Below are positions 22,150 through 63,840 of a stretch of DNA of 64,000 nucleotides, one piece after another. Origin of the DNA: an uncultured Candidatus Peribacteria bacterium. Its GTDB lineage: Bacteria > Patescibacteriota > Gracilibacteria > Peribacterales > Peribacteraceae. The stretch is from positions 25,287 through 89,286 of the forward strand of contig CAZWES010000001.1 in assembly GCA_964632395.1 (NCBI GenBank). Reading direction: 5' to 3'. The notes beneath the pieces were generated by a model. That model had not been told where the DNA came from. It searched no databases and saw only the letters and a list, made by a program, of their open reading frames with translations. Numbering within the stretch: the first letter of the stretch is position 1; each line of letters opens with the position of its first letter. The translations under genes were made by a program, and so were the position numbers.

Positions 22150-22352
22150 GTGGCGCGGGCGCATCCGATTGTTTATGAGTAGCTGTCGATCGGGTCAGGA
22201 TAGAAAATAGTTGTCGAGAGAGTAGGATCGCTCGCGCGGGGTTAGAATTGCTTCCACTAATGTTTTTCTCAGCATGTTCTTGCCCCGCGCGAGCGGTTCG
22301 GCATTCCGGCTTCGCTAGGCTCAGCCTACATGCCGAACGCGCACGCGCCACC
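22149..22352. repeat. Nested inverted-repeat (REP/BIME-like) element, copy 1, immediately upstream of the RayT gene
   Basis: Outer IR GGTGGCGCGGGCGC / GCGCACGCGCCACC. Inner IR CGCTCGCGCGGGG..AGAA / TTCTTGCCCCGCGCGAGCG. A further stem GTTCGGCAT/ATGCCGAAC is present. Confidence 0.8.
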
Positions 22353-22389
22353 TTTGTGCAATCGCTTGTGATAAAAAGCCTCTCCTATC

Positions 22390-25829: not shown

Positions 25830-26019
25830 ATAGTGGCGCGGGTATGTCACGAAATCGCGCAGCGATTGAGTGACTACCCGCGCGGGGCAAGAATGACAAG
25901 CCGAAATCCTGCGACAGGCGTTTGTAGCCCCGCGCGGGTAGTCCTTCCGTTTTACTAAAAAAATTTCAATTGAATTTGATGCTACTTTCGGTACATGACG
26001 GACATACCCGCGCCACTAT
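25830..26019. repeat. Nested inverted-repeat (REP/BIME-like) element, copy 2
   Basis: Perfect 19-bp outer IR ATAGTGGCGCGGGTATGTC / GACATACCCGCGCCACTAT. Perfect 17-bp inner IR GACTACCCGCGCGGGGC / GCCCCGCGCGGGTAGTC. It shares CGCGCGGGGCAAGAA with copy 1. Confidence 0.85.
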
Positions 26020-27344: not shown

Positions 27345-27402
27345 AGGGGGAGTATTTTCTGTGATTTGAGGAAAAATGTCAAGGTGTATGATACCTGCCC
27401 GT

Positions 27403-34309: not shown

Positions 34310-36493
34310 TTATTTACTATCCAATTCCTCCTCCGAAGGATGTTTCGCATCTGGATCATCAGATTTTTCATCATCCGGAGGCGCTTCGAAGAGGCCATCG
34401 GTTTGGGGTTCTTGTTTTGGTTTTGTGGGTTTGTCTTTGGCGCTGGACGGGGTTGTGGTTGCCGATTCCTCCGGCGGAGACGCCCTCCCCTCTGCTTTTG
34501 GTTCTACGTCGCTCTGTTCAGTTGGTGTTGTGTCGGATAGGTCGGGCGTCTCTACGCCGTCGGGCGTATCAACGGCATCCGAAATTGCCTCTTCTCGCTT
34601 CTCGGCTTCACGCTTTGCCAATTCCTCTGGGTTCGTTGTAATAATTTCATGCTCCTTTGGCGAGGCGACGATTTGGATTGCGACGTGTTTGCGGCCGGCG
34701 AAGAATACTCCTTGTCCGACTGATGCATTCAGAAGCAGATACCTCTCACCTTCTGTCAGATTAAATGCCTTCTGCAACGAGTCGACTGCGGAGGGGGCCT
34801 GCTTCAGCAAAATCTGCATCGCGGCATTGGTCACAATTGGTTTTCCAAATGGCGAGCGCATGAAGTCCTCCACGTCCTGCGTGATTGTTGTGATTCCAAG
34901 GTAATACTTTCTTGCACGCTTGATTAGGCCGTAGAGGAATCTTGCGGAATCTTCATATTGCATGATGTTCCATGCCTCATCAATTACAACCAGCCTCTTT
35001 TTGAGCGAGCTACGGACTTCATTCCAAAGGAAATTAAGGACGATATAAATCGCCATCGGGCGAAGTGATTCCTCAAGGTCACGAGTCTGGAAAACCATTA
35101 GCTGGCTACCCACATCAACATTTGTTTGCTGGTTAAAGAGGCCGGCAAAGCTTCCTTCGGTGTACTTTTTAAGAATCTTTGCCATCTCCTCTCCGCCTTC
35201 AGTCGTCATCAAAACATCAACAAGATCATGTAGGGTCGGAGGTTCCATTTTCCCCGGGTCAGGGGTTTCCATAGTGATTCCCTTTAGCGCATATGTATCC
35301 AGAATTGCTTTATCCAAAGTTGCTTCCCTTTCCGAGCCAACATCCCCGATCATTAGCTTAAATAAGCCATGGAGGTTGATTACGGCACTCCTCAAAAGCT
35401 GCCCGGGCTTCGAGTCTTCATCATCACCACTTGAGGAAATTGCCTTGGGGAGATCGAATGGATTGATTCTTGCATTTCCCTGAACAGAAAGCGGAACAAC
35501 CGCACCGCCCATCACATTTGCAAGTTCGGTGTATTCGTTTTCCGGATCAATTATGTAAACGTCCGTATCCATCATCAAATATCTGATGACTTCGAGTTTT
35601 ACTGCATAAGATTTACCGGCGCCGGATGTTGCAAACACAGTTTCGTTCGCGTTCGGAAGTTTGAACCTGTCAAAAATTACGAGGGACTCGTTGTGGCGGT
35701 TTATGCCGTAAAGCACTCCTTGGTCGCTCGTAAGATCCGAACTTGAGAACGGAAAAGCAGTCGAGAGTGGGGCGGTATTCATATTCCGATTGATTTCCAG
35801 TTCATCAAGGCAAAAAGGAAGAGTGGAATTCCACGCATGCTCCATCTGGAAATCTGCAGGCTTCATCAACACAAGCTTTCCTCCAAGAATGGATTCAATG
35901 TCTGCCTGAATCTTCTTAAGTTTCTCATCACTCTCCGCATAAATTGTGATGTAGAAGCCAAGTTGGAAGAGTTTCTCGAATCCGCGTGCGAGCATATCCC
36001 TGAGTTGTTCCGCATCTTCCAGTGCAGCTTCAAGTTGCGGGTCACGGGAGAGGCCCTTCTCACGTCTCAAGTTTATGGACGAACGCATCTCCGTAACTTT
36101 GCGTTTTAACATCTTCATCACCGCAGCACTTGAGCTTGGATAAATGAACTGGGAGATATCCATTGCAGCTTCGTAGTTCACAATTTGTGCCATCCAGTTT
36201 GGATGGATCTGGCTTGGCCAGTTAAATGCAAAGAAAGTGCGTGCAATAGTTCCATCCCCAATCGTGATGGATTTAACTCCAACATCGAGCGCGGAAGGCG
36301 AAACAACATCCAGAACTTTCTGCAGACCCTCCTCGTAAAGTTGCTCTGCCGTCCTCTCTTCCTCCTGGCTTATGCCGTCATCTCCCTCGGCTTTTTTGGG
36401 TTCCTTCTCTTTTTTTGGCGCGGGAGCACCAAGCAGCAGATCGAGCAGAGAGCCTCCACTCTTTTTTGCCGTTGTTTGTTTATTTTCTGCCAT
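34310..36493 (-). CDS. virB4: VirB4/TraC-like type IV secretion ATPase
   Basis: VFATSGAGKSYAV is Walker A and RLVVIDEAWNIM is the Walker B DEAW motif. ARKYYLGITTITQDVEDF is also present. Acidic low-complexity C-terminus. Confidence 0.8.
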   Translation of the reverse strand: MAENKQTTAKKSGGSLLDLLLGAPAPKKEKEPKKAEGDDGISQEEERTAEQLYEEGLQKVLDVVSPSALDVGVKSITIGDGTIARTFFAFNWPSQIHPNWMAQIVNYEAAMDISQFIYPSSSAAVMKMLKRKVTEMRSSINLRREKGLSRDPQLEAALEDAEQLRDMLARGFEKLFQLGFYITIYAESDEKLKKIQADIESILGGKLVLMKPADFQMEHAWNSTLPFCLDELEINRNMNTAPLSTAFPFSSSDLTSDQGVLYGINRHNESLVIFDRFKLPNANETVFATSGAGKSYAVKLEVIRYLMMDTDVYIIDPENEYTELANVMGGAVVPLSVQGNARINPFDLPKAISSSGDDEDSKPGQLLRSAVINLHGLFKLMIGDVGSEREATLDKAILDTYALKGITMETPDPGKMEPPTLHDLVDVLMTTEGGEEMAKILKKYTEGSFAGLFNQQTNVDVGSQLMVFQTRDLEESLRPMAIYIVLNFLWNEVRSSLKKRLVVIDEAWNIMQYEDSARFLYGLIKRARKYYLGITTITQDVEDFMRSPFGKPIVTNAAMQILLKQAPSAVDSLQKAFNLTEGERYLLLNASVGQGVFFAGRKHVAIQIVASPKEHEIITTNPEELAKREAEKREEAISDAVDTPDGVETPDLSDTTPTEQSDVEPKAEGRASPPEESATTTPSSAKDKPTKPKQEPQTDGLFEAPPDDEKSDDPDAKHPSEEELDSK

Positions 36494-37408: not shown

Positions 37409-39973
37409 TCAAACTGGTGCCCCCCCAATCGGAGGCATTCCTGCAGCCCCTCCCGGTGGCGTTGATGGAATGTACGCACCGATCCTCCTTTCAATCTCAC
37501 GACTCACAAACGCCTTATCTCGTCCGTACGTCAAACGGCTTAATTGTTTGAAGGCCTCGGCTGCCTGGTCATCGCCTTTGATTGCGTATGGGTTTTCCGG
37601 GATGATTGAGAAAGGAGCAGAGGGTTGCGTATCCACGCTCAACTTCATCACCGCTTTGTATTTATCCAGATTGATCAGGTCACTTTCAGAAAAGGCAGGT
37701 GCCATTTCTTTTGCGCAGTACTCGGCATCCTGTGCACCGATTTTGTAGAACATCATTGTTCCGATGTTTCCAAAGACTGCGCCCTTCAAATTCACGTTCG
37801 CGGAAAGTTTGCTCTCCTTCTCCAGCTGATCGAGATACTGGTGTGCCATGCAGAGGCCGAGCTTGTATTTCCTGGCTTCAGAAAGTATCGACTCAATTGA
37901 TTCTGTTACATAGTTCTGGAACTCATCAATATAGAGGAAAAACGGCACGCGCTCCTCATCACTTTGCTTTTGGCGACGCATGGCGGCGACCTGAACCTTG
38001 TTCACGATTATCATTCCCATGAGCTGCGAGTTGATGTCACCTACAAGTCCTTTACTCAGATTCATGATCAGAAGCTTCTTCTGGCTCATCACATCATGAA
38101 AGTCGAATGCGCTCTTTACTTGTCCGACTATGTTTCTTATCAGTGTGTTTGTTGTGAATTGCCCGAATTTGGCTGCAAAGTAGGGGATCATTTCCTGCTT
38201 TTCGCGCTGCCCGGTTTGTGCCATCTGTTTCTCCCAGAAAGAACGCACGATGGGATTTGCGACTTTTGTAACTTTGTACTTCTGCCATTCATCATCAGTG
38301 AAAAGTCTGACAAGATCCGTGATGGCGCCACCTTCATCCTCATCCGCCATCAGCGTCAAACAACCGTTCCTGAAGTAATCCTGAATCCTCGGCCCGAAAA
38401 TCTCTTCACCAAACATCTTTACCATCATGTTCATTGCATCAAGAGCGATCAGATCTTTTTCTTCCTCCGATTTTCCTTCCAGCATATTCAGGCCGATCGG
38501 ACGCTCGGTATCTGCCGGGTTAAAGTAGATGACATCATTCGCCCTCTCGCGCGGGATGCGCGGAAGAAGCGCTTCCGCAAGCGATCCGTGCGGGTCCACA
38601 ACGCAGCATCCATTTCCATTGAGGAAGTCCTGCACCGCAAGATTAATCATCATTGTGGATTTTCCTGTTCCCGTTTGCCCGACGATGTAAAAATGACGGA
38701 AGCGGTCATTAAATTTCATGTAAACATCCTTCTTTGCTCCGCGATAAACATTTGTCCCAAGCTTCACAGAATTTTCTCCTGCCTCCTCAGAATCTGATGG
38801 AACATTCTTTGGTGAGGGGACTATCTTGTAGTTCTGCCACTTAATGGTCGTCACCTTGTTATAAACGATGCTTGGAAAGTGGAAAAGCCCGGCAAGTTCA
38901 AGCGAACAAAGCAGTAGTCTTGGATGCCTAATGCGCCTGATGATGGGTATCTTTGGAGCGCGTCTTATAAAATCCGCAACAAGCCGGCGGTGATTGTGAT
39001 AGCGAGTTCTAAAGAGAATATTGCCTGCGATCTCGGAAAACTGGTTGAAACCTCCAATCACATTTTCAAGCTGCTCATCTGATTTCTTCTTTGAACTCGC
39101 AGAGGTCACAATTCTAATTGCAGCATGATATCCCGGTGAGCCTGCTTTCATATCCATTGTTTTACTCAGCTCTTCTGTCATCTGTGAAACCCTTTCACCC
39201 GTTTGGCGCTCCTCTCCACTTTCCAGTTTAAAGAGCGCGGTTCCATACGTCATCGTCGTAAACATTGCAGAGAACCACGTAATCGGGTTCCAGATTACGA
39301 TTCCTTTCTTTTTGGGATTGAGTAACTTCTGTGCTTCCTTTCGTGCTTTTTTGTGCCATCCGGATTTGGCAGGCCTGAGCATTATCTGCACTGCAGCACC
39401 TTCATCTTTTGCGAGCTTGCTGAACGCATTCGTGATTGCATTAAGCGGATCGCTCTTCATAGTCTCGTAAGTCTTAAGCGGCTTGAAGTATCTCTGTGAA
39501 GTAAGCAAATATGTTGAGGATGTGTGTGATTCTTTTGTGAAGATGTTGTAATCCTGAACTTCATCAATCACGGCATCGGGGTAAAAGGATGTTATCTGTT
39601 TTTCAACGAAGGAAACGAGGGATCGCGGAACTACTACGTAGAAAAGAATCTCACCTTCCAGTGCGGCATATTCAACCGAGAAAAATGGCTGTCTCCTAAA
39701 AAACCTGCGGATCTTGTGCGAGTCGTAAATTCCGTAGAGCGACTGGAAAAGGTGGTCCATCACTCCGGTTACCTCCTTAAAGGATTTACCGGTCGAGAAT
39801 TCCTCCGAAACTTTCTCCTTATCCTCTTTGCTTTCCTTTTTGGGCATTAGGATTTGCAGGAAAACAAGGCTGCGCGAGCGCAGGCGGTCGGTGAGGATTC
39901 TTGATGCCCAGACAATTGCTGTGAGGAGGGCAGCGGTGAGTAGGGCGATCAGGATGATCAGGGTTGGGGTCAT
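37409..39973 (-). CDS. virD4: VirD4/TraG/TraD-like type IV coupling protein
   Basis: N-terminal TM helix. HFYIVGQTGTGKSTMMINL is Walker A and FFLYIDEFQNY is Walker B. 854 aa. Confidence 0.75.
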   Translation of the reverse strand: MTPTLIILIALLTAALLTAIVWASRILTDRLRSRSLVFLQILMPKKESKEDKEKVSEEFSTGKSFKEVTGVMDHLFQSLYGIYDSHKIRRFFRRQPFFSVEYAALEGEILFYVVVPRSLVSFVEKQITSFYPDAVIDEVQDYNIFTKESHTSSTYLLTSQRYFKPLKTYETMKSDPLNAITNAFSKLAKDEGAAVQIMLRPAKSGWHKKARKEAQKLLNPKKKGIVIWNPITWFSAMFTTMTYGTALFKLESGEERQTGERVSQMTEELSKTMDMKAGSPGYHAAIRIVTSASSKKKSDEQLENVIGGFNQFSEIAGNILFRTRYHNHRRLVADFIRRAPKIPIIRRIRHPRLLLCSLELAGLFHFPSIVYNKVTTIKWQNYKIVPSPKNVPSDSEEAGENSVKLGTNVYRGAKKDVYMKFNDRFRHFYIVGQTGTGKSTMMINLAVQDFLNGNGCCVVDPHGSLAEALLPRIPRERANDVIYFNPADTERPIGLNMLEGKSEEEKDLIALDAMNMMVKMFGEEIFGPRIQDYFRNGCLTLMADEDEGGAITDLVRLFTDDEWQKYKVTKVANPIVRSFWEKQMAQTGQREKQEMIPYFAAKFGQFTTNTLIRNIVGQVKSAFDFHDVMSQKKLLIMNLSKGLVGDINSQLMGMIIVNKVQVAAMRRQKQSDEERVPFFLYIDEFQNYVTESIESILSEARKYKLGLCMAHQYLDQLEKESKLSANVNLKGAVFGNIGTMMFYKIGAQDAEYCAKEMAPAFSESDLINLDKYKAVMKLSVDTQPSAPFSIIPENPYAIKGDDQAAEAFKQLSRLTYGRDKAFVSREIERRIGAYIPSTPPGGAAGMPPIGGAPV

Positions 39974-42229: not shown

Positions 42230-42886
42230 TTACTCCTTCAAAAGTACTTCTAAATATTTCTCAAAACAATGTGACAGTGGCTCCTGAAATTCAGGAAAGG
42301 TATCCAGAATAGGTATGATGTCGGACTCAGTGTGATAAGGGAAAATGCCCATAATTTTTTCATTTTTGTTAGAAACAACAACTATCGAAGCTATACCCTG
42401 CTTGACAAGGTCATGATCTAATCCAACCTCATAAGATCCTTCATGCTGATCGCTCCCGGCCAGCCATCCATTCATACATTTAACGACCTTTCCTTCCAAA
42501 GGAGCACAGCTCTCATTGTTACACATCCCAAACCCCATTCTATGATAATAGACGTAAAACTGAACATCGCTCGGTATTTTGTTGGGATGTAAAACTATGC
42601 CAATGGGGGCTTTACCACCAATGCGTAGCGGACCAAAGTTATCTACGGATTTTAGGAATTCATTTTCAGGGTATTTTTTTAGCGCTCTTAATAATTCTTC
42701 GTGGATTTTCTCACCTGCCCAAAAAACTTCCTTTTCTCCTGTTCTAGGATTTACTTCAATGGTTTTACTGTATACCCAGTTCATGTCTATTTCCCAGAGT
42801 AATTCATATGTGGCCATTACAAATAACCAAAAGCAGATTGTTCCGATAAAGATAGTTCCCAAAATAATATTTCTTTTTATTCTCAT
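42230..42886 (-). CDS. Membrane-anchored extracytoplasmic protein, candidate immunity partner (copy 1)
   Basis: N-terminal TM helix NIILGTIFIGTICFWLFVMA. The domain has FGPLRIGGK...FYVYYHRMGFGMCNNESC...IVVVSNKNEKIMGIFP. Its ATG is 4 nt after the stop of the upstream gene. Paralogous to 51465-52376. Confidence 0.6.
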   Translation of the reverse strand: MRIKRNIILGTIFIGTICFWLFVMATYELLWEIDMNWVYSKTIEVNPRTGEKEVFWAGEKIHEELLRALKKYPENEFLKSVDNFGPLRIGGKAPIGIVLHPNKIPSDVQFYVYYHRMGFGMCNNESCAPLEGKVVKCMNGWLAGSDQHEGSYEVGLDHDLVKQGIASIVVVSNKNEKIMGIFPYHTESDIIPILDTFPEFQEPLSHCFEKYLEVLLKE

Positions 42887-42890
42887 ATAG

Positions 42891-43868
42891 TTAGTCGGTA
42901 ATTTCTAAAATGCCAATGCTCTTGGAGTCACCCAGCCTGGCTCTAATGAAAACTTTATAAACTTCATTCCACCTTTTCAGCTCCGTAAGGGTGATGCAAC
43001 CTAAAGTAGCCTGACCGGTGTGAATGTACTTTTCTTTATCTTTACCCGGTCGGTGCTCATGCCCGATATGAAACCAGACCTTCGCCTTGGGAGCCTTTTT
43101 GGCATGAGGAATGCCGCCTTCATGCGGATGATCTGCTATTTCAATGTCATAAAAGCCTTTTTTCCATCTTTCTCCCTGATATTCAATAACCTTGTAGGAT
43201 TTCCTTTTGATTTTGAGTCGTTTTGCTGATCTAGAGTAAGTTACTTTTACTGGGCCTGTGTAAGGATTTCCCGATATTAAATAGGATTTTCCATTCTTTT
43301 TGGTCTTAACAGAACCTGTTTCACCCTGCCTCCATCCCTCCATAATCGTAAAGTAATCTCTCCTGCCTTCGCGTTTATCGAGTCTAACCCTCAAAAAAGC
43401 GGGTATTGCCTGAACTTTTTTGTATCCATCTATTTTTACCCATAAAAAGCCATCCTTCTGCTCCTCAATGTAGTGCATTACCTCCATTACCTGGATATCA
43501 AAGTCAACTTTAAATTCAGCTTCTGGCCTGACAAATGGCCACCTTATTTCTTTTACTTTAACCAAAACTGACTTCTTTTGAATACGCGATTCATTGAGAT
43601 TCACTTTAAACTTTATCTCTGAAACCCCAACGTCATTTAATACCTTATCTCTCTCAATTATTCTGGTTAAAATTGGCAGGCTGAAAGAGCTTTGATCTAT
43701 TTTGAAAACCCCAATCTCCTCTCCAATTTTTCTAGTGGATCCACAACGTAATTTCAAATTTTTCTGAAAGCTTTCTCCAATTGCTTCAATCTCAATTCGG
43801 ATGTCATCCCCTATGGATTTCCCTGAGTATTTTATGCTTGATAGTGTCAGAAAGATATTCTTTATCAT
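42891..43868 (-). CDS. Candidate cell-wall-targeting effector with YkuD/Tlde1-like His...Gly-Cys motif (copy 1)
   Basis: 325 aa with no signal peptide. The C-terminus has GFYDIEIADHPH...KVWFHIGHEH...KYIHTGQATLGCITLTELKRW. The N-terminal two thirds are unrecognised. Paralog at 50410-51459. Confidence 0.55.
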   Translation of the reverse strand: MIKNIFLTLSSIKYSGKSIGDDIRIEIEAIGESFQKNLKLRCGSTRKIGEEIGVFKIDQSSFSLPILTRIIERDKVLNDVGVSEIKFKVNLNESRIQKKSVLVKVKEIRWPFVRPEAEFKVDFDIQVMEVMHYIEEQKDGFLWVKIDGYKKVQAIPAFLRVRLDKREGRRDYFTIMEGWRQGETGSVKTKKNGKSYLISGNPYTGPVKVTYSRSAKRLKIKRKSYKVIEYQGERWKKGFYDIEIADHPHEGGIPHAKKAPKAKVWFHIGHEHRPGKDKEKYIHTGQATLGCITLTELKRWNEVYKVFIRARLGDSKSIGILEITD

Positions 43869-43913: not shown

Positions 43914-43990
43914 TGGTGGAGCTGGAGGGATTCGAACCCTCGACCTTCTGATTGCGAACCAGACGCTCTGACCGACTGAGCTACAGCCCC
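43914..43990 (-). tRNA. tRNA-Ala (anticodon CGC)
   Basis: Reverse complement: GGGGCTGTAGCTCAGTCGGTCAGAGCGTCTGGTTCGCAATCAGAAGGTCGAGGGTTCGAATCCCTCCAGCTCCACCA. It folds as a cloverleaf with a G3:U70 pair, the T-loop GGTTCGAATCC and an encoded CCA. Confidence 0.9.
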
Positions 43991-50124: not shown

Positions 50125-50170
50125 TTTGAGTTGAGCTGCAGTTTGTTTTTGTGCGCACGGAGGTTTTCAT

Positions 50171-50188
50171 GTTTTAATACGTTGAAAC
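50171..50188. repeat. 18-nt palindrome, degenerate solo copy (3' half of an E-type element)
   Basis: GTTTTAATACGTTGAAAC preceded by GGTTTTCAT and followed by CAAGCAG, as at the right end of E1. Confidence 0.7.
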
Positions 50189-50264
50189 CAAGCAGCAGTT
50201 CTACATTTGATGACTTGTGAGTAGCGTCGGTCGATTGTGTTCGTACACACACGTTTGTATTGTT

Positions 50265-50355
50265 GTTTTAAAACGTTAAAACAAACACGCCTGCGTACAA
50301 AATGCAAAAAAGCCCCGATTCCGTGGTCTGCTATTCGAGGTGGAAAGCAGAAAAG
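50265..50355. repeat. F-element, left copy (18-nt palindrome plus about 70-nt conserved tail)
   Basis: GTTTTAAAACGTTAAAACAAACACGCCTGCGTACAAAATGCAAAAAAGCCCCGATTCCGTGGTCTGCTATTCGAGGTGGAAAGCAG... A near-identical direct repeat lies at 52429-52517. Confidence 0.85.
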
Positions 50356-50409
50356 CGAGACCAATCATGCCAAATTTGTTCTACTATTGGTTTGTTTCGA
50401 TGTTTTTAC

Positions 50410-51459
50410 ATGGCAGGCTTGCATTGGACAAAGTTGAAATCGTGCATCAAACTATTAGCCGAATTAACCTTAACCAGCTCGAAAGTGCCAAAAGAGATCT
50501 TTCTTAAATTGGGCAGTGTCAAATATTCAGGAAAGTCCATAGGCGATGATATACGGGTTGAAATCGAAACAATGGGAGAACGCGTTGTAGTTGATAAGCA
50601 AATTAAAAGAGGAACGACAAAACGGATTAATAAAGACATTGTAAGATTTACCGTTGATCAAAATTCACTCACTCTGCCAATTACAGTCAGAATAATTGAG
50701 AAAGATATTGTGTTCAATGATGTCGGAGCCAAAAAAGTGAAGATAAAGGTGGATTTGTCGAATCAAGGGTCACAAAAAAGCACTCATCGAGTGGAAGTAT
50801 TTGAAAAACGCTGGAAGTATAAAAAACCAAAAGCTTTGTTTGATGTCACTTTTGAAGTGTTGGCTTCAGATATATTTCGATACATCGAAGAAATGGATGA
50901 AGGATTTTTGTTGGTAAAAAACGAAGCTGATAAGAAGAAGTCTTTGCCAGCGTTTCTTAAAGTCAAATACAATCGACGTGAAAATGAGCGTGAATATTTT
51001 ACCCTTCTCGAAGGGGTTTTGCAGGGGAAGACATTTTCCGTAAAAGCGAAGAGTGGTGGAAGCTCTCGTCTTATTGAGGGAAATCCTTACACCGGGCCGG
51101 TTCATATGACTTATTCAAAGTCTGCAAAGAAATTAACTGTTAAGGGCAGAAAATATAAAATCATTGAGGATCCGGCAAATTCTTGGAGAAAAGGTGTCTA
51201 TGATGTTGAAATCCCTGATCATCCACACATGATGCCAGAGGATTATTTGAACAAATCTTCGAAAGCAAAAGTTTGGTTTCATATAGGTCATGATCATAGG
51301 GATGAAGTGGCGAAGGAGAGGTACTTGCATACTGGTACGATGACTGCAGGATGTATGACGATGATTGAGTTGGAAAAATGGGATGAGATTTATAAAATTC
51401 TTATCAAAGCGCGGAAGGGCGATTCGATGAGTGTTGGTACTGTTGAGATCATAGATTGA
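50410..51459 (+). CDS. Candidate cell-wall-targeting effector with YkuD/Tlde1-like motif (copy 2)
   Basis: ...GVYDVEIPDHPH...KVWFHIGHDH...RYLHTGTMTAGCMTMIELEKW. Collinear with 42891-43868, with roughly half the aligned residues identical by eye. The start is uncertain: ATG at 50410, or GTG at 50484, which would mirror the copy-1 N-terminus. The ORF-track start at 50302 lies inside the F repeat. Confidence 0.55.
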   Translation: MAGLHWTKLKSCIKLLAELTLTSSKVPKEIFLKLGSVKYSGKSIGDDIRVEIETMGERVVVDKQIKRGTTKRINKDIVRFTVDQNSLTLPITVRIIEKDIVFNDVGAKKVKIKVDLSNQGSQKSTHRVEVFEKRWKYKKPKALFDVTFEVLASDIFRYIEEMDEGFLLVKNEADKKKSLPAFLKVKYNRRENEREYFTLLEGVLQGKTFSVKAKSGGSSRLIEGNPYTGPVHMTYSKSAKKLTVKGRKYKIIEDPANSWRKGVYDVEIPDHPHMMPEDYLNKSSKAKVWFHIGHDHRDEVAKERYLHTGTMTAGCMTMIELEKWDEIYKILIKARKGDSMSVGTVEIID

Positions 51460-51464
51460 TAATC

Positions 51465-52376
51465 ATGAAACGTACTTTGTTTGTCATATCCGGCATTATC
51501 CTTATTGGAGTAATGGTTTGTATCGCATTAATCTTTTTTGCCAATGGAGGAACATCAGGAAAAGATGGAAGACTCCGCGCTATAGGCGAGTTTGGCAACC
51601 TCAAAATCGGAGACAAATATTTCTATAAGGCTGGTGGTGATGTTGGTAATGCTTACGAAAAAATTCCTCCATCGAGATTTTATATTTATGTTCTACGGAA
51701 TGACTATAATTATAATGATATCTGTACTTATGAGTCATGTGGAATTATTGGTGGTACGGTCTCTCTTTTAAGGGGGTGGCTAATGGGCTACAAGCTTTCT
51801 CCTTATGAAGAGGAATTTGGTCTTGAATTAAACGACGCCGGAGAATTTCCGACTGGAGAATCGTCTCTGATTGTTGTCGCAGACGGCGATTCTAAAATTA
51901 GAGGAATACATCCAAACGCAAAAATGGATAATTTAATTAACATTTTAAAACTATATCCCGACCTGGTAGATTTTGATCTTCTGAGAGGGATGACGGAATT
52001 TGGACCGCTTGAAGTCGGCGCAGATTTTCCGGCCCATCTTATTCAGGAATTTGACGACCATATTTTTGCAGGGGAACCACAAAAGAAATTCACAGTGTAT
52101 TACATATGGAATAAACCGCGGGGACCCGGATGTAATTACTTTGAGTGCGGGTATCATCTCGATCTCATTTATTCATACGGAGGAGATTATTTAGATATCT
52201 GCCCCGATCGCGATGACGTGCTTCTGGAGCTTGGCATTAGCCCTTCACAGGTATCGCGCGGTGAGGCGACTCTTATGGTGATAACCGATTCCAAAAACAA
52301 AATAACAGGTATTCACCCCAATGTTTTGCTTAGAGATGTGGCTGGGATTTTGTTGCAATACGCTTTGGTGCGGTGA
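51465..52376 (+). CDS. Membrane-anchored protein with two tandem copies of the candidate immunity domain (copy 2)
   Basis: MKRTLFVISGIILIGVMVCIALIFF is a TM helix. Two repeats follow: FGNLKIGDK...CTYESC...LIVVADGDSKIRGIHP and FGPLEVGAD...CNYFEC...LMVITDSKNKITGIHP. The ATG is 5 nt after the upstream stop. Confidence 0.6.
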   Translation: MKRTLFVISGIILIGVMVCIALIFFANGGTSGKDGRLRAIGEFGNLKIGDKYFYKAGGDVGNAYEKIPPSRFYIYVLRNDYNYNDICTYESCGIIGGTVSLLRGWLMGYKLSPYEEEFGLELNDAGEFPTGESSLIVVADGDSKIRGIHPNAKMDNLINILKLYPDLVDFDLLRGMTEFGPLEVGADFPAHLIQEFDDHIFAGEPQKKFTVYYIWNKPRGPGCNYFECGYHLDLIYSYGGDYLDICPDRDDVLLELGISPSQVSRGEATLMVITDSKNKITGIHPNVLLRDVAGILLQYALVR

Positions 52377-52428
52377 AGCACTGGAAGAATTTTGTTTGGT
52401 CATCTTTAGCGTTAGTATTTGTTTCCAT

Positions 52429-52530
52429 GTATTAATACGTTAAAACAAGCGCGCCTGCGTACAAAATACAAAAAGCCCCGATTCCGTGGTCTGCTATCCG
52501 AGGTGGAAAGCAGAGAGGTGGAATCGGGGC
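52429..52530. repeat. F-element, right copy, extended into a terminator hairpin
   Basis: GTATTAATACGTTAAAACAAGCGCGCCTGCGTACAAAATACAAAAAGCCCCGATTCCGTGGTCTGCTATCCGAGGTGGAAAGCAGAGAGGTGGAATCGGGGC. Confidence 0.85.
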
Positions 52531-52547: not shown

Positions 52548-53153
52548 TCAGCGTTTTCTGCTCTTCAATTCTTCTGCTACTTCAAAAAGATCAATTTGGG
52601 AACTCTGTAGAAAAACCAGTGCGTGATACAGTAAATCAGCAGCTTCTTCCCTAGTTCTCAGGTTCCCCTCGCTTTTAGTGGCACAAATAAGTTCTTTTGC
52701 CTCCTCAATTACCTTTGCTCCGCACACTTCGATCCCGCCATCAAGCAGTCGTTTTGTGTACGAACTCTTTTGATCTGCATTTCTGCGCTGCCGGATTGTT
52801 TCAATTAGTTCCCCGATTGTTTCGAGTGGGAGTTCAGGAGCGTCAAAGCATGAAATATTGTTTTTGTGACAAGTTGGACCCTTTGGGATTGCCCGAATAA
52901 GGAGAGTATCGCCATCGCAGTCTAAGTAAATGGAATCGAACCTTAGAGTGTTTCCCGATTTCTCCCCCTTCTCCCACAGTCTTTTCTTCGATCTGCTGTA
53001 AAAGGTCACATTACTCGAATCAATGGTCTTTTTCAGTGCTTCCTCGTTCATATAGCCGAGCATAAGGATGTGACCTGTTCTAGCATCCTGAATGATTGCA
53101 GGAACGAGCCCATCAGGGTTTTTTTGCCAGTTAATGGCATCAAGATCAATCAT
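52548..53153 (-). CDS. hisI: Bifunctional phosphoribosyl-AMP cyclohydrolase / phosphoribosyl-ATP pyrophosphatase
   Basis: GLVPAIIQDARTGHILMLGYMNEEAL...YLDCDGDTLLIRA is the HisI part. The C-terminal EEAKELI...EEAADLLYHALVFL is HisE. Confidence 0.85.
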   Translation of the reverse strand: MIDLDAINWQKNPDGLVPAIIQDARTGHILMLGYMNEEALKKTIDSSNVTFYSRSKKRLWEKGEKSGNTLRFDSIYLDCDGDTLLIRAIPKGPTCHKNNISCFDAPELPLETIGELIETIRQRRNADQKSSYTKRLLDGGIEVCGAKVIEEAKELICATKSEGNLRTREEAADLLYHALVFLQSSQIDLFEVAEELKSRKR

Positions 53154-54631
53154 AATCTGACGGGGAAAGAGGCTTTTTGTAGCGCTTCCTTCACGTCCCG
53201 GATGCGAAATGTTTCAAAGTGAAACACGCTCGCAGCAAGTACAGCATCAGCTTTCCCCTCCTGAACTGCATTGACAAATGTTTGTAGAGACCCTGCTCCA
53301 CCGGAGGCAATGATTGGAACACGAACGTGCTTTTTAATCTCTCGCAGAAGCTCCGTGTCGAATCCTTCACCGGTTCCATCACGATCATAAGATGTTACAA
53401 GCAATTCTCCTGCTCCTCGTTCAACAGCTTCCTGTGCCCATTCAATTGCATCAAGCCCCGTATCTTCACGACCTCCTCGAACAAGCACAGTCCAGTTTTT
53501 TCCTTTGCGTTTCGCATCAATTGCGCAAACCGTATTTGCACTTCCAAGCTGTTCCGCCATTTTCGAAAGAAGTTCTGGTCTTTTCACGGCGGCAGAGTTT
53601 ACAGAAACTTTATCTGCCCCTGCTTCGAGTAGTCGTCTGGCGTCGTCAACGGAGCGAATGCCTCCACCAATTGTAAGTGGTATATTCACGCTGTCTGCAA
53701 CACTGGATGCAAGATCATATACGGCTTCCCGATTATCAAGTGTTGCGGTGATATCGAGAAATACCAGTTCGTCTGCACCTTCATCGCAGTATCGTTTGGC
53801 AAGCTCCACGGGATCACCGGCATCGCGTAGATTCTGAAACGATGCGCCTTTCACAACACGGCCATTCGTCACATCCAAACAAGGAATAATGCGAATAGCA
53901 GGATCAGAGCTTGCGGAGATGAAAAGTTCTGAGAGTGATGTTGCATCATTCAGTAGCGACTTACCGACGACAGCCGCAGCGCAGCCTTGTGATCGAAGTG
54001 TACGGATATCACTTCCACCTCGTATTCCGCCACTCGCAATAACTCTGACTGATGGAAACTTTGACTGCACATTCTTGTACAAGCGGAGACTTGGACCTGA
54101 TTCCATTCCGTCATACTCGATATCTGTGATGAGCACAGTGTCAATGTCCATTTGTACGATACGCCGCAAGGCATCATTGAGACTCACATTTGTTCCATCA
54201 CGCCAACCCCGAATTTTCACTTCATCTCCCCATACATCGAGTGCAGCAATGAAGCGATTTCTACCAAAAAGCGTAACGGCATTTCGCAACACATCAGGGC
54301 TCGTGAAGATGAGCGTTCCGATAACAATTTGTTCTGCGCCCGCATCGAGAAGCATCTGAATATCTTTGAGAGAGCGAATGCCACCACCCGTCTGAACCGA
54401 TAATCCTGTCTCTGCGACAATGTTTTGTATAAGCTGCAAAAAGGCAGAACCAACCTTCCCTTTTTTCGCTCCTGAAAGATTCACAAGGTGAATTCGTTCT
54501 GCACCTTCCTCTTTGTATCGCTTGGCAATCGTGAGTGGATCATCTTTCCACGTTGTTTTGCGCGTGAAGTCACCCTGTGCAAGTCGCACAGTTTTTCCAG
54601 CCAGCACGTCAATGGCGGGGATTACTTGCAT
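53150..54631 (-). CDS. hisAF: Fused HisA-HisF protein (ProFAR isomerase plus IGP synthase cyclase subunit)
   Basis: N-terminal half: MQVIPAIDVLAGKTVRLAQGDF...VQTGGGIRS...ASGGIRG (HisA). C-terminal half: RIIPCLDVTNGRVVKG...IGGGIRS...IASGGAG (HisF). It is one uninterrupted 493-aa ORF. Confidence 0.85.
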   Translation of the reverse strand: MQVIPAIDVLAGKTVRLAQGDFTRKTTWKDDPLTIAKRYKEEGAERIHLVNLSGAKKGKVGSAFLQLIQNIVAETGLSVQTGGGIRSLKDIQMLLDAGAEQIVIGTLIFTSPDVLRNAVTLFGRNRFIAALDVWGDEVKIRGWRDGTNVSLNDALRRIVQMDIDTVLITDIEYDGMESGPSLRLYKNVQSKFPSVRVIASGGIRGGSDIRTLRSQGCAAAVVGKSLLNDATSLSELFISASSDPAIRIIPCLDVTNGRVVKGASFQNLRDAGDPVELAKRYCDEGADELVFLDITATLDNREAVYDLASSVADSVNIPLTIGGGIRSVDDARRLLEAGADKVSVNSAAVKRPELLSKMAEQLGSANTVCAIDAKRKGKNWTVLVRGGREDTGLDAIEWAQEAVERGAGELLVTSYDRDGTGEGFDTELLREIKKHVRVPIIASGGAGSLQTFVNAVQEGKADAVLAASVFHFETFRIRDVKEALQKASFPVRL

Positions 54632-55179
54632 AATTTAGCGAAAGAAAGAAGATAACGGTCTCCAATCTCTCCCGATTTCTCCGGGTGCCACTGCACACCG
54701 AAGAAGTTTTCTTGTCGAACACCAGCGCATAACGATTCACCGTACTGCACAGTCATTGTGATGATATTCGGATCATCCGGTACACAGGTATAACCGTGTA
54801 CAAAATACGCATAGTCGCCCGTTGAGAGCTTGTTCCATCCCATGTGTGGCTTGGTTATGGTGTTTGGAAGTTCCTGTACTTCTCCTTTGATAATTCCCAG
54901 ACATTCGGTGGGACCCTCCTCCGATTTTTCAAAAAGAAGTTGCATACCGAGGCAGAGGCCAAGAAATGGTTTTTTGAACTTGCGGAGCGGCTCGACCAAT
55001 CCTCGATCTTGTAAACGATTCATTGCTGCTTTTGCTGCACCTGCTCCAGGCACGATCAGCCCTGAAAGCTCTTTAAGCTCTCCTGCCTTTTCAACAATTC
55101 GTGAAGAGATATCAAGGCGGGTGAGCGCACGTTGTACGCTTCCTACGTTGCCTGCGCTGTAACGGAGAATGCCTATCAT
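54622..55179 (-). CDS. hisH: IGP synthase glutamine amidotransferase subunit
   Basis: MIGILRYSAGNVGSV...PFLGLCLGMQLL...GVQWHPEKS is the triad pattern. The start is adjacent to the hisB stop. Confidence 0.85.
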   Translation of the reverse strand: MIGILRYSAGNVGSVQRALTRLDISSRIVEKAGELKELSGLIVPGAGAAKAAMNRLQDRGLVEPLRKFKKPFLGLCLGMQLLFEKSEEGPTECLGIIKGEVQELPNTITKPHMGWNKLSTGDYAYFVHGYTCVPDDPNIITMTVQYGESLCAGVRQENFFGVQWHPEKSGEIGDRYLLSFAKLCK

Positions 55180-56216
55180 AGTGAGCCTTTGGTAGAAGGA
55201 ATGCCCTGCTCGTGCGGGCATGAGCGAAAAGCAGATCGCAGAGCGCGACCTAACCCCTTAAAAAGAGCTTCAATTTTGTGGTGCTCGTTCTCACCTCTGC
55301 GCAGTGTCATGTGCAAATTACATTTAAGCGTCTGTGCAAGTGACTCGAAGAAGTGTGCTACGAGTTCTGTTGGAAGTTCCCCCACGTATTCACGCTTGAA
55401 TTTGCCATCGAAAATGAAGTAGGGACGGCCAGAGAGATCAACAACAATTTCTGCGAGTACTTCATCCATAGGCACCCAAAAGCCATATCGTTCAATCCTG
55501 CGTTTGTCACCCAGAGCTTTTGAAAGCACCAAGCCAAGCACAATACCAATATCTTCCACAGTGTGGTGTTCATCCACTTGCAGGTCTCCGTCTGCTTTTA
55601 GTGTGAGATCAATGAGAGAGTGCTTTGTAAAGAGTTCGATCATGTGATCGAGAAACCCAATGCCTGTGCTTACATCGGATTTTCCTGACCCATCGAGGTT
55701 CACAAATGATTCGATCTTCGTTTCTTTCGTTTCACGCTTCACAGAAGCGAACCGAGGAAACTGCGTATTTGTTTGCATCTTCACAAAGCACACACCTATG
55801 TTTTCTGCAAACTCACGATCAGTCTTACGATCTCCAATCGTCAGTGATTGTCCGAGATCAATATCATTCTCATCGAGGAATTGTTTCACCAAACCAATCT
55901 TTGGCTTCCGACATTCACAATTATTACTCTGCGTGTGCGGACAGATGAAAATTTGATCAAAAACGATTCCTTCCTCCAATAATTCTGAAAGGAGCCCGCC
56001 TTGTGGAGGCTCAAAGTCTTCCCGTGGGAAGCTCTCGGCACCTAAACCATCTTGATTACTGACCATCACAAGAGAAAACCCTTGTTCTTTGAGTGCCTGT
56101 AATCCTTCAATGACGTTGGGAAGAACACGAAATTTCTCCATAGAATCAACCTGTTTTGTCTCTGGCGGCTCCCAGATCAGAACGCCGTCACGGTCAATGA
56201 ATGCTACTTTTTTCAT
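55176..56216 (-). CDS. hisB: Bifunctional histidinol-phosphatase / imidazoleglycerol-phosphate dehydratase
   Basis: N-terminal HAD motif VAFIDRDGVLI and C-terminal IGPD motifs (IGFLDHM, HHTVEDIGI, ENEHHKIEA). Confidence 0.85.
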   Translation of the reverse strand: MKKVAFIDRDGVLIWEPPETKQVDSMEKFRVLPNVIEGLQALKEQGFSLVMVSNQDGLGAESFPREDFEPPQGGLLSELLEEGIVFDQIFICPHTQSNNCECRKPKIGLVKQFLDENDIDLGQSLTIGDRKTDREFAENIGVCFVKMQTNTQFPRFASVKRETKETKIESFVNLDGSGKSDVSTGIGFLDHMIELFTKHSLIDLTLKADGDLQVDEHHTVEDIGIVLGLVLSKALGDKRRIERYGFWVPMDEVLAEIVVDLSGRPYFIFDGKFKREYVGELPTELVAHFFESLAQTLKCNLHMTLRRGENEHHKIEALFKGLGRALRSAFRSCPHEQGIPSTKGSL

Positions 56217-59865: not shown

Positions 59866-59900
59866 GGGGGCAATATATAGTGGGCGGGGGTGTGTGTCAA
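59866..59900 (-). promoter_or_regulatory. Sigma-70-like promoter positioned for a leaderless yerC-his transcript
   Basis: Minus strand: TTGACA (59900-59895), 17-nt spacer, TATATT (59877-59872), 6 nt, ATG (59865). The -35 lies 1 nt from an 18-nt palindrome. Confidence 0.5.
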
Positions 59901-59901
59901 T

Positions 59902-59986
59902 GTTTTAATACGTTAAAACAAGAGGCAAGGAAAAGCAGCCTTAACGTGGAGTTTAGGCTTGTTTTGGTGTTTTAATACGCTAAAAC
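59902..59986. repeat. E-element copy 1 (two 18-nt palindromes flanking a conserved imperfect hairpin)
   Basis: GTTTTAATACGTTAAAAC AAGAGGCAAGGAAAAGCAGCCTTAACGTGGAGTTTAGGCTTGTTTTGGT GTTTTAATACGCTAAAAC. Confidence 0.9.
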
Positions 59987-60164
59987 CAAGCAGATTTAAT
60001 CAAGATTCACAGAACTTTCTCCATCCATACTGTTTCCAGTCCTCCAAGCTCCCCGCGTTTATATTCGCGATAGCCCCTGATGATTATTGATGACTCTGTA
60101 GCTCAAGGATAATATTTCTTATATTTCTTGCAATGATTTTCTTAGAGGAATGTGGGGTAAGAAT

Positions 60165-60250
60165 GTTTTAATACGTTAAAACTAGGGGCGAGGAAAAGCA
60201 TCTGTAAAGTGGGATTTTGAGCTTGTTTTCGTGTTTTAATACGCTAAAAC
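60165..60250. repeat. E-element copy 2
   Basis: GTTTTAATACGTTAAAAC TAGGGGCGAGGAAAAGCATCTGTAAAGTGGGATTTTGAGCTTGTTTTCGT GTTTTAATACGCTAAAAC. Confidence 0.9.
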
Positions 60251-60285
60251 TACACAGCTGTGCAAAACTTCAGAGTAGAAGCCTC

Positions 60286-61431: not shown

Positions 61432-61524
61432 ATTTTATCCGGGTAGGTTCTAGATCATAGTACCAAATAAGGTGGGACACGTGAAATTTTTGTGCTGTAT
61501 GTAAAAGAGCATGCTTGTTTTCAT

Positions 61525-61610
61525 GTTTTAATACGTTAAAACAAAGGGCAAGGAAAAGCAGCTTTAAAGTGAAGTTTGGAGCTTGTTTTGGTGTTTTAAT
61601 ACGTTAAAAC
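61525..61610. repeat. E-element copy 3
   Basis: GTTTTAATACGTTAAAAC AAAGGGCAAGGAAAAGCAGCTTTAAAGTGAAGTTTGGAGCTTGTTTTGGT GTTTTAATACGTTAAAAC, preceded by GCTTGTTTTCAT. Confidence 0.9.
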
Positions 61611-61679
61611 TAAGCCAAGCTGCATGAAAACAAAAAGATAGCTCCACTCCTATATCCGGTTTGACGCTATAATTCCAAC

Positions 61680-62570: not shown

Positions 62571-62590
62571 TTGTTGGCATAAGTACTGGT

Positions 62591-62677
62591 GTTTTAATAC
62601 GTTAAAACAGTGGGGCAAGGAAAAGCAGCTTTAAAGTGGGGTTTGGAGCTTGTTTTCGTATTTTAATACGTTAAAAC
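62591..62677. repeat. E-element copy 4
   Basis: GTTTTAATACGTTAAAAC AGTGGGGCAAGGAAAAGCAGCTTTAAAGTGGGGTTTGGAGCTTGTTTTCGT ATTTTAATACGTTAAAAC. Confidence 0.9.
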
Positions 62678-62724
62678 AGACCAAAGTCTCTAAAAGCTCA
62701 GAAAAATACAGAGATGGAGCCTCG

Positions 62725-63840
62725 TCACGTAACAACCTCCTCCAATCTTCCATCATCGACCGTCTTTTTTATCTCCCCCGCAATCCTCTCCCCATAACTC
62801 ACTGGCTCCCCATGCAAGTACATCGAGTAGGGAGTGAACTTTGTTCCCGGCGACCCCGGAATCCTCAAACTAACATCAAAAATAACAATATCCTCTTTGC
62901 CCTCTTCTGCAACAACTGCGCCCTGCAAAGCGAATGGGCCGATGATGCCTTTGTCATCATGTTTTTTAGTTGCAGCCACAAACTTTTCACCCAGGTCAAA
63001 TGCTTTTTCCAGAATGGATTCTTTTACGGTGACGGCGATGTGACCAGTCTCAATCATCTTCAGGTCAACGTGCTTGAGTGCCTTAGCTTGTTCGGCTGCA
63101 GTCATTTTCAAAAACCCATCAAGATTAGTTTGTCTTCTTGTATCTGTTCCCATCAACTCAAGTTCGTTTGAAAGAGGGGAGTAGAAGAAGTTGAAGTTAA
63201 CCGGAGCGCCGACTACAAATTCCTCAATCACGGCATCACGCCAACTTGAATCCACTTTTCCATCTGCCTCAAGTTTTGATCCTTCTTCTTCATATTCATC
63301 TTTACTTGAGACAACAAAGAAGGCGCGCTCATAACTTCGTGCTTTCTCACTTGCCTTGACAATTATCGGCCTGTCGATCTCTTCCGGCTTTTCAAAAATC
63401 TTTGGAGCTCTGATGCCAGCGTCATGCAACAAATGATACTGGTTGTAAGGCTGGTCGCGTTCCTCCAGTTTTATGTACGAGCGGTTGCCGAAGATCGGTA
63501 CATTGAAATCATTTTCAACTCGTGAATAATCGCTGAAGTAAACCCAAAAGTAGCGATTGTGGATAAAAATTGTATTCAGAGATCTTAAGTTTTCCTGAAC
63601 TTCATCATCAAGAACGTTTTCGAATGTTTCAACTGGTATCACTTCATCAACACACCCTTTCCCGTCACGAGCCTTGTAATACGTATCGTAAGTTTTGTTT
63701 CTGCCTTTTCGCGCTACGCATACAGTCTTAAAGTCAAACTTCTTTGCGCCATGGCAAACATCAAGTGCGCTGTGTCCGCCAAGGACGCCAATTGAGATCT
63801 TATTTGTGTCGTAGCCTTTGAGGAGTTCTTGGGGGGTCAT
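62725..63840 (-). CDS. purP: FAICAR synthetase PurP (archaeal-type, ATP-grasp)
   Basis: ISIGVLGGHSALDVCHGAKKFDFKTVCVARKGRNKTY parallels the PurP N-terminus (I.t.GSHSAL.i..GAK.eGF.T). 371 aa. Confidence 0.75.
   Translation of the reverse strand: MTPQELLKGYDTNKISIGVLGGHSALDVCHGAKKFDFKTVCVARKGRNKTYDTYYKARDGKGCVDEVIPVETFENVLDDEVQENLRSLNTIFIHNRYFWVYFSDYSRVENDFNVPIFGNRSYIKLEERDQPYNQYHLLHDAGIRAPKIFEKPEEIDRPIIVKASEKARSYERAFFVVSSKDEYEEEGSKLEADGKVDSSWRDAVIEEFVVGAPVNFNFFYSPLSNELELMGTDTRRQTNLDGFLKMTAAEQAKALKHVDLKMIETGHIAVTVKESILEKAFDLGEKFVAATKKHDDKGIIGPFALQGAVVAEEGKEDIVIFDVSLRIPGSPGTKFTPYSMYLHGEPVSYGERIAGEIKKTVDDGRLEEVVT

Follow-up and report, generated by a model that had tools for sequence, protein, structure and literature searches.

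Introduction

Toxins with an L,D-transpeptidase fold that are paired with periplasmic immunity proteins are known from proteobacterial type VI secretion, and the means by which Patescibacteria, or candidate phyla radiation (CPR) bacteria, attack or manipulate other cells are poorly known. To our knowledge, the Patescibacteria-like lineage has neither a type VI (T6SS) nor a type VII (T7SS) secretion system. Among the closest described systems is the effector-immunity pair Tlde1/Tldi1 of the Salmonella T6SS, for which the residues H121, S128 and C131 of Tlde1a have been reported (PMC9638812). L,D-peptidase domains are also listed as warheads of polymorphic toxins with linked immunity genes (PMC3482391), and in the cargo of extracellular contractile injection systems (eCIS) the eCIS_core domain (DUF4157) sits N-terminal to C-terminal toxin domains (PMC8213781). 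Here we describe a two-gene module, A-B, that occurs twice in a 64,000-nt stretch of contig CAZWES010000001.1 (positions 25,287 to 89,286; hereafter the window, with positions counted from its first letter). Copy 1 comprises the genes A1 and B1, and copy 2, the subject of this work, comprises A2 and B2 and lies between arsR and hisIE. We interpret copy 2, with moderate confidence, as a horizontally acquired cassette of the effector/immunity type, composed of a wall-targeting effector (A2) and an immunity protein (B2) and inserted at arsR/hisIE.

Protein A and Its Predicted Fold

The original prediction presented the plus-strand genes 50410-51459 and 51465-52376 as collinear paralogs of the pair at 42.2-43.9 kb, which alignment bears out. 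A2 and A1 are identical at 166 of 323 positions (51%, E 5e-122) and contain every sequence block quoted in that prediction, and in B2 the domain that occurs once in B1 is duplicated in tandem, with 27-31% identity. The A2 gene is present as described, but its start is probably the GTG at 50482 and not the ATG at 50410, because with approximately 120 homologs (~320 aa) the alignment does not begin before residue 25-28 of the open reading frame (ORF) that starts at 50410. As synonymous sites are saturated at 51% amino-acid identity, the divergence of the two proteins was expressed as identity per domain instead of dN/dS, and amounts to 46% in the N-terminal, 52% in the middle and 56% in the catalytic domain.

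Protein A has no significant match in Pfam, NCBIfam, the sequences of the Protein Data Bank (PDB), PADLOC or PHROGs, and contains no signal peptide, lipobox or hydrophobic segment. An AlphaFold model of A built from 44 homologs reaches a pLDDT of 92.9. A fold search with this whole model returned C2 domains alone, matching the N-terminal ~135 residues, and a second model of residues 140-325 was therefore required (pLDDT 93.2). The top 28 PDB matches of the latter in Foldseek are all L,D-transpeptidases, among them Ldt1, Ldt2, Ldt3 and Ldt5 of M. tuberculosis and proteins of M. abscessus and Xylanimonas, or DpaA, with E-values from 1.5e-4, probabilities of 0.97-1.0 and modest TM-scores of about 0.4. 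His249, His283, Gly290 and Cys291 are invariant in the 44 homologs and His270 is conserved in at least 90% of them, the consensus RIGHxGERYLHTGxxSLGCIT being similar to the L,D-transpeptidase motif and to H121/S128/C131 of Tlde1a, but having a spacing unlike that of the canonical HXX14-17(S/T)HGC motif. When the family members were scanned singly against Pfam, Tlde1_dom (PF10908) was matched by 9 of the 44 (best E 0.028) and YkuD (PF03734) by 5 (best E 0.027, 14.4 bits against a cut-off of 23.4), the weak YkuD match falling on the motif region of the profile; A1 and A2 matched neither. Because these matches are sub-threshold and the motif spacing is non-canonical, A is placed in the fold superfamily and not in either Pfam family. 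According to the models, A is thus an L,D-transpeptidase-fold protein whose C-terminal ~190 aa are predicted confidently, and we infer that it has enzymatic activity.

The Catalytic Domain as a Candidate Toxin Warhead

An exhaustive profile search of 1.84 billion representatives (50% clustering) retrieved at least 771 representatives related to A, 557 of them at E <= 1e-10. Many of these relatives are stand-alone forms of ~195 aa covering profile positions ~131-319, and others are fusions. Among ten long fusions that were scanned, six consist of eCIS_core (PF13699, formerly DUF4157) followed by a C-terminal A-like domain, one of Peptidase_C70 and an A-like domain, and one of an A-like domain and an Amidase_3 wall amidase. 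The eCIS_core fusion P0365 is 37% identical to residues 156-324 of A2 (E 7e-30) and is encoded within an eCIS operon together with Pvc16_N, AAA, CIS_tube, Phage_GPD, Phage_base_V, DUF4280 and gp25 proteins. The A-like domain is therefore found behind eCIS_core or Peptidase_C70, before Amidase_3, or standing alone, a pattern of re-use by which polymorphic-toxin domains are recognised.

Protein B and Its Linkage to the Catalytic Domain

To place the module in other genomes, the species genomes of the Genome Taxonomy Database (GTDB; 185,579 genomes) were scanned with a single pattern, which yielded 61 loci, a number to be read as a lower bound; the genome that contains the window is not itself one of these species representatives. 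In approximately 55 of them a downstream gene is tightly coupled to A and starts a few bases past its stop codon, with A-partner gaps of 4-6 nt. The partner is a B protein in 38 loci, an unrelated anchored protein (B') in 11 and another anchored protein (B''), which carries a weak PdaC-like signal, in 5. A ~130-aa domain with the motifs CxxxxC, GGW and GI[YFH]P is present one to three times in B proteins, which are provided with a single N-terminal transmembrane (TM) helix or, in other lineages, with a lipobox. As a lone query B2 detected no homolog, and Pfam, NCBIfam, PDB, PADLOC and PHROGs gave nothing significant for B. A profile built from 16 partners recovered at least 253 B homologs, all of them unnamed and devoid of Pfam domains.

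The association of B with A extends beyond the two-gene form. The gene that follows the stand-alone toxin-domain protein P0326 (locus L168) encodes a lipoprotein that matches the B profile with 42.5 bits. B thus appears to track the catalytic domain and not the C2-like domain, as would be expected of a cognate inhibitor, and by analogy with known effector-immunity pairs B is probably an immunity protein. The surroundings of P0326 (L168:84-2090) form an array in which a signal-less L,D-transpeptidase-like protein, a B-family lipoprotein, a signal-less Peptidase_M23 protein and a 136-aa ORF succeed one another, and which, judged by its gene content, looks like a tandem effector/immunity island.

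A reading without antagonism would make A-B an accessory pair that remodels the peptidoglycan of its own cell, B being an anchored receptor, activator or export helper that recruits A as an enzyme exported by a non-classical route. Such a role would suit the domain order of A, which is that of LdtMt2-type enzymes (Ig-like, then catalytic), a partner that does not evolve markedly faster than A and can be swapped for other anchored proteins, and the fact that no delivery machine adjoins the modules. Yet all characterised housekeeping L,D-transpeptidases known to us are exported, whereas A lacks a signal peptide. Its catalytic module serves, moreover, as the C-terminal cargo domain of eCIS_core proteins, one of them within an eCIS operon, the module is sparse, patchy, multi-copy and AT-rich, and in the L168 array a signal-less M23 peptidase is present, with each enzyme followed by a small ORF. 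We consider own-wall remodelling unlikely. The original prediction had preferred a toxin/immunity locus to a housekeeping wall enzyme, and this preference is supported, as far as sequence comparison goes, by the missing export signal of A, its re-use with eCIS_core, the predicted extracytoplasmic position of B and the patchy distribution of the module.

The Probable Insertion Site and Its Direct Repeats

The cassette occupies the convergent arsR/hisIE intergenic region, where it accounts for 2.2 kb and two genes (Table 1). The ~90-nt direct repeats that had been described around it were borne out by exact alignment: the left and right repeats can be aligned over their whole length with a single 1-nt indel, and their best core (50268-50351 and 52432-52514) spans 84 nt at 92.9% identity (blastn-short, E 1.8e-28). 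The earlier count by eye of fewer than ten differences was correct as well, the number being about 8-9 within the range then considered. The repeats are composed of two parts. Their palindromic first ~33 nt are ~75% identical, as are unrelated members of the palindrome family, and the specific part of ~66 nt is 94% identical and present in just two copies in the window. The right repeat runs on into GGAATCGGGGC (52520-52530), which pairs with GCCCCGATTCC (52475-52485) to form an 11-bp stem around an inner hairpin, with a U-run behind it on the minus strand; the structure lies directly after the hisIE stop codon. The left repeat retains the A-run and the stem arm GCCCCGATTCC (50312-50322), and lacks the second stem arm. 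The folding energy of the right copy is -41.2 kcal/mol (z = -4.96) and the left copy has a z-score of only -1.36, in agreement with the earlier observation that the right copy alone completes the hisIE terminator. The specific part is, in other words, the duplicated distal half of this terminator, and only the right copy is complete. The cassette was also correctly described as AT-rich relative to its neighbours, the GC content being 0.37-0.40 in both window modules and 0.44-0.50 in their surroundings.

Table 1. Coordinates of the two A-B modules and of the sequence elements at the copy 2 site
Feature	Position in window	Strand	Description
Upstream palindrome, first-unit copy (GTTTTCATGTTTTAATACGTTGAAAC)	50163..50188	+	3' of arsR, beyond the duplicated segment
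Left direct repeat	50254..50351	+	Second-unit palindrome (50265-50282) and ~66 nt of the distal half of the hisIE terminator
Leader, left repeat to probable A2 start	50352..50481	+	Alternative ATG at 50410
A2, 325 aa	50482..51459	+	No hydrophobic segment; C2-like beta-sandwich (~1-135), beta domain (~140-195) and predicted L,D-transpeptidase-fold domain
B2, 303 aa, putative immunity protein	51465..52376	+	N-terminal TM anchor and two tandem ~130-aa B domains
Right direct repeat	52418..52514	+	Palindrome (52429-52446) and ~66-nt specific part
Complete hisIE intrinsic terminator	52460..52530	-	52520-52530 pairs with 52475-52485, inner hairpin enclosed, then U-run
A1, 325 aa, paralog of A2	42891..43868	-	Starts 45 nt after tRNA-Ala(cgc) at 43914-43990
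B1, 218 aa, single-domain partner of A1	42230..42886	-	CvpA-like gene 8 nt further on

Flanking Repeats at Other Loci

For the loci recovered elsewhere, the 800 nt that precede A were compared with the 800 nt that follow the partner gene in a search for direct repeats (E < 1e-4). Such repeats were found at 10 of 40 testable loci and at 2 of 99 control pairs of adjacent genes from the same loci (Fisher p 6.5e-5). They consist of local sequence, and both their target and their length (23-164 nt) vary from genome to genome: in L007 and L010 they repeat the initial 44-57 nt of the gene downstream, in L018 and L048 the final 39-164 nt of the gene upstream, and in L016, L032, L038 and L048 they are hairpins. 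The functional copy of the repeat always adjoins its own gene, as does the complete terminator next to hisIE in the window. In L007, L010 and L048, in which the two copies differ, 23 of 36 differences fall at third codon positions, and the reading frame of the gene fragment in L048 is still open, its substitutions being conservative and its indel in frame; the copies in L018 are identical. The excess of third-position differences, seen at three loci only, suggests that one repeat copy is derived from the orthologous gene of another lineage, which would point to recombination and not to target duplication by a staggered cut.

The limits of the module are marked in a second way by L160-L164, which are 77-79% identical in DNA to copy 1. 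The alignment is confined to the stretch from the start of A to near the end of B, and the flanks differ. Module GC is lower than flank GC in 33 of 47 homologous loci (Wilcoxon p 8e-4). The description of copy 2 as a discrete insertion is thus upheld by its repeats, its AT-richness, the end of DNA homology at the A-B boundaries and the enrichment of flanking repeats across loci.

It could be argued that the two repeats are chance members of a ubiquitous intergenic family and say nothing about insertion. The 18-nt palindrome GTTTTAATACGTTAAAAC is present in 11 copies in the window, all in plus orientation, against a chance expectation of 0.01, and none of the intergenic gaps from 59.9 to 62.7 kb is without it. 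Both cassette repeats open with a second-unit member of this family, and several flanking repeats of other genomes are hairpin elements or, in Deltaproteobacteria bacterium TL4, genome-wide repeats. The palindrome is indeed not specific to the cassette and is a ubiquitous intergenic element. The possibility that the repeats are nothing but such elements, which had been raised together with the original prediction, hence applies to the palindromic part but not to the ~66-nt part, which is better conserved than the palindromes, exists as only two copies in 64 kb and represents the functional half of the hisIE terminator. Moreover, the repeats of L007, L010, L018 and L048 are fragments of neighbouring genes, and flanking repeats are enriched over control gene pairs. 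That the repeats are uninformative is considered improbable.

Distribution and Ancestry of the Module

The module is sparse and patchy, and occurs mostly in Patescibacteria of many classes. Apart from A and B, proteins encoded in the window are matched in five of the 61 loci only, and their order is never kept.

Neighbour joining places A2 with the protein of L004, to which it is 61% identical, and A1 with L007; the nearest sequences to A1 are L164 (84%), L160 (78%) and P0009 (66%). On the basis of these comparisons the two window modules are taken to be old, separately related lineages and not the products of a recent duplication. The idea that copy 2 is a recent duplicate of copy 1 therefore did not hold, each of the two A proteins being closer to proteins of other genomes. 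An older duplication within this genome, followed by divergence, would account for the collinearity of the modules, their identical gene order and their similar low GC without independent acquisition. Against it stand the 61% identity of A2 to L004 and the 66-84% identity of A1 to L007 and L164, compared with 51% between A1 and A2, and a Parcubacteria genome in which partners of the double-domain B2 type and of the B1 type are encoded in two distinct modules (L006 and L007). This origin is regarded as very unlikely.

Several genomes carry more than one module, with at least six in Deltaproteobacteria bacterium TL4 and two in several others. The TL4 modules (L009, L014, L015, L020, L025 and L052), in which B is a lipoprotein, show 72-84% DNA identity among themselves. 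A repeat of ~75 nt (CCAATCGGGTAGGTAGCGGTTTTTCTCCGCC...) with more than 90% identity follows immediately after the B stop codon in three of them and is located upstream or elsewhere in the others. Tandem modules are seen in L022 (5967-6026 and 8095-8153), in which a second A gene lies ~400 nt past the partner gene, and the contig ends soon afterwards.

Carriage by phages or plasmids was considered and rejected. No module homologs were found in IMG/VR or INPHARED, and plasmid matches were limited to a distant stand-alone homolog from Bacillus wiedmannii (E 5e-14) and a marginal one from Gemmatirosa (E 6e-4). The B. wiedmannii protein (L159, plasmid CP024688.1, 15339-15932) is a 197-aa homolog of residues 141-325 of A with 32% identity; it has no signal peptide, adjoins a type IA topoisomerase gene and has no B-like neighbour that could be found. 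Its plasmid is typed MPF_T. Targeting of tRNA genes was likewise rejected: a few other loci resemble A1 in its position next to tRNA-Ala, but the enrichment is not significant (2 of 62 versus 4 of 544, p 0.12).

The virus databases also bear on the proposal that A-B is a phage lysis or anti-phage abortive-infection module in which a membrane protein releases a signal-less wall hydrolase. A is indeed a signal-less protein with the predicted fold of a peptidoglycan enzyme beside a membrane protein, and HEPN/NTase and AbiE toxin-antitoxin genes adjoin some loci. Homologs are nevertheless absent from both IMG/VR and INPHARED, no fold match was obtained in BFVD at E <= 0.001, PADLOC and PHROGs gave no significant matches, and B is unlike a holin, having a single anchor and an outside domain of ~130 aa with conserved cysteines. 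A phage-related function seems most improbable.

Palindromes, Transposase Genes and Genomic Surroundings

A Y1_Tnp (IS200-like) gene is located at 22390-23022 on the plus strand of the window (Pfam E 1.8e-9), and is flanked by a hairpin that is unlike the cassette palindrome. Y1_Tnp genes abut the module in five loci (L008, L016, L038, L039 and L051), and in all of these except L051 the same hairpin flanks both the Y1_Tnp gene and the module. The hairpin that precedes the window gene is long and GC-rich (GCTCGCGCGGGG...CCCCGCGCGAGC, 22226-22354). This ~130-nt element is 78% identical to L160:5366-5486, a segment from another metagenome that lies about 1.1 kb past an A1-like module, on its downstream side.

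The window palindrome is also part of larger elements. Four intergenic elements of ~90 nt (59900-59989, 60163-60252, 61523-61612 and 62590-62679) are each composed of two GTTTTAATACGTTAAAAC copies and a conserved 48-nt spacer; they are all in plus orientation and occur once per gap between the trpR-like, DUF711, APH-like and purP genes (59.9-62.7 kb). They could be elements like repetitive extragenic palindromes (REP) or bacterial interspersed mosaic elements (BIME), or paired operator sites. A further direct repeat of 47 nt (16504-16550 and 20758-20804, 89% identical) brackets a class II ribonucleotide reductase gene (16675-20193).

Two proteins with sortase domains, one of which also has S-layer homology (SLH) domains, and a further SLH protein are encoded in the window (26016-27461 on the minus strand, 31378-32364 and 3242-4795 on the plus strand). 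Together they suggest that the envelope is monoderm-like and has an S-layer, a point of relevance to the site at which the wall-targeting effector and its anchored partner would act. The his operon and purP genes include 53150-54631, 55176-56216 and 62725-63840, all on the minus strand. One his-operon protein, of 493 aa, contains two His_biosynth domains and is apparently a fusion of HisA and HisF; the operon also encodes a bifunctional HisB, and purP is of the archaeal type (DUF1246 and DUF1297). This repertoire is unusual if the organism is Patescibacteria-like.

Proposed Mechanism and Its Weighing

In the interpretation favoured here, the ~2.16 kb between the repeats (leader, A2 and B2) would have been acquired horizontally, and the insertion would have left a target duplication of ~98 nt, made up of a palindromic unit and the distal half of the hisIE terminator, with the intact terminator next to hisIE. 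The N-terminal C2-like beta-sandwich of A2 would probably serve in binding or trafficking. On the model of Tlde1 and L,D-carboxypeptidases, A2 may cut or exchange the terminal D-amino acid of stem peptides and thereby weaken the target wall. Since A2 has no signal peptide, it would be harmless in the cytoplasm of the producer and would have to leave the cell by a dedicated route. B2, anchored on the outer face of the membrane beside the substrate, would bind and block incoming A-type enzyme. The family as a whole may move as a two-gene unit, mostly among Patescibacteria, and its integration would often duplicate ~20-160 nt of local sequence, possibly through recombination of the chromosome with an incoming, perhaps circular, cassette copy that bears a piece of the orthologous flank. 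Toxicity, immunity, export route and integration mechanism are what we infer, from the comparisons described above. A bolder version, in which A-B would be a self-contained mobile cassette of Patescibacteria-like bacteria that spreads without a recombinase by an undescribed mechanism that duplicates 20-160 nt of its target and restores the interrupted gene end or terminator, and in which the C2-like domain would mediate an unrecognised form of delivery, as a trafficking module or by binding the target membrane, is put forward as a tentative possibility with a low probability; it would make A-B a first candidate for an interbacterial wall toxin system in this lineage.

A number of observations weigh against the effector/immunity interpretation or against its mobile part. 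Pfam scans of ~40 ORFs of the window revealed no secretion system or known trafficking domain linked to the cassette, and no integrase or transposase linked to it. VirB4/TraC-like (34310-36493) and VirD4/TraG-like (37409-39973) ATPases are encoded on the minus strand 2-8 kb from copy 1, and in L061 and L064 a VirD4-like gene is found no more than ~2.5 kb away from the module; delivery by a type IV secretion system was nevertheless rejected, the adjacency of VirD4 across loci being at about chance frequency. The YkuD and Tlde1 matches are below threshold, the His-Cys spacing is non-canonical, and more than one His may be the catalytic one. None of the eCIS_core fusions examined has a B-like neighbour. 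Family-wide, B evolves not much faster than A (median identity 44% versus 49%), and unrelated proteins replace the partner even between sister A genes, as could also happen to a structural partner. As regards mobility, only about one locus in four has flanking repeats, and none were found at copy 1, at L004, the closest relative of A2, or at L160. An empty site was not found either: contigs with an identical HisIE (9) or ArsR (6) all carry the cassette where they are long enough, and a metagenome scan for HisIE gave nothing above 52% full-length identity and two partial matches of 56-66% over ~90 residues, and so recovered no close relatives, in a collection that may not hold this lineage.

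The module belongs to a large family of unannotated relatives (at least 771 for A and 253 for B) that have neither an above-threshold Pfam domain nor an informative name, in which the compact two-gene form is concentrated in Patescibacteria/CPR and the catalytic module is shared with contractile-injection cargo. With A as a secreted wall toxin and B as its immunity protein, the pair would offer a testable handle on antagonism or host manipulation in ultra-small bacteria, as well as a new family of immunity proteins. The long local duplications around the module raise the separate question of how small accessory cassettes move in these genomes.

Comparison With Known Systems

As a putative mobile unit, the cassette was compared with several described elements. 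Integrative elements that duplicate their att site, and Campbell-type single crossovers, likewise leave target repeats on both sides and the interrupted element intact on one of them. The A-B cassette, unlike these, has no integrase, its targets and repeat lengths vary, and repeats are seen at ~25% of loci. Read directly, the cassette repeats do not contain the RYYYAAC/GTTRRRY cores of integron cassettes, and consist instead of local terminator sequence and a 7-4-7 palindrome. As regards REP and REP-associated tyrosine transposase (RAYT) systems, the window contains a dispersed family of short palindromes (11 copies) and a Y1_Tnp gene that is flanked by a different hairpin.

As a candidate effector, A has relatives of several kinds. 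Housekeeping L,D-transpeptidases (YkuD, LdtMt2 and DpaA/LdtF) have its predicted fold and likewise place an Ig-like domain before the catalytic one, whereas A differs from them in having no signal peptide or lipobox, sub-threshold Pfam scores, a patchy distribution, multiple diverged copies and an obligate partner gene. The L,D-peptidase warheads linked to RHS proteins (PMC3482391) follow the same logic, that of a toxin derived from a wall-enzyme fold and accompanied by a linked immunity gene. A, in contrast, has no RHS or recognised trafficking module and is encoded in a small two-gene cassette. Toxins of eCIS (PMC8213781) share the C-terminal ~190 aa of A. A2 carries its C2-like beta-sandwich where they have eCIS_core, and no gene of an eCIS was found in the window.

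A further close parallel is Tlde1/Tldi1. Both systems have a signal-less Cys/His enzyme of (predicted, in the case of A) L,D-transpeptidase fold with an (S/T)xGC motif and peptidoglycan stem peptides as the known or presumed target, and in both the immunity, or putative immunity, gene lies immediately downstream and encodes an extracytoplasmic product. A differs from Tlde1 in its two additional N-terminal beta domains and in Pfam scores far below threshold (best E 0.028), and the A-B module differs from Tlde1/Tldi1 in its occurrence mostly in Patescibacteria, in the B proteins forming a family of their own and in its setting, T6SS domains being absent from the ~40 window ORFs and from the recurrent neighbours in the 61 loci. 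Judged by this analogy, A-B would work like Tlde1/Tldi1 without belonging to that family.

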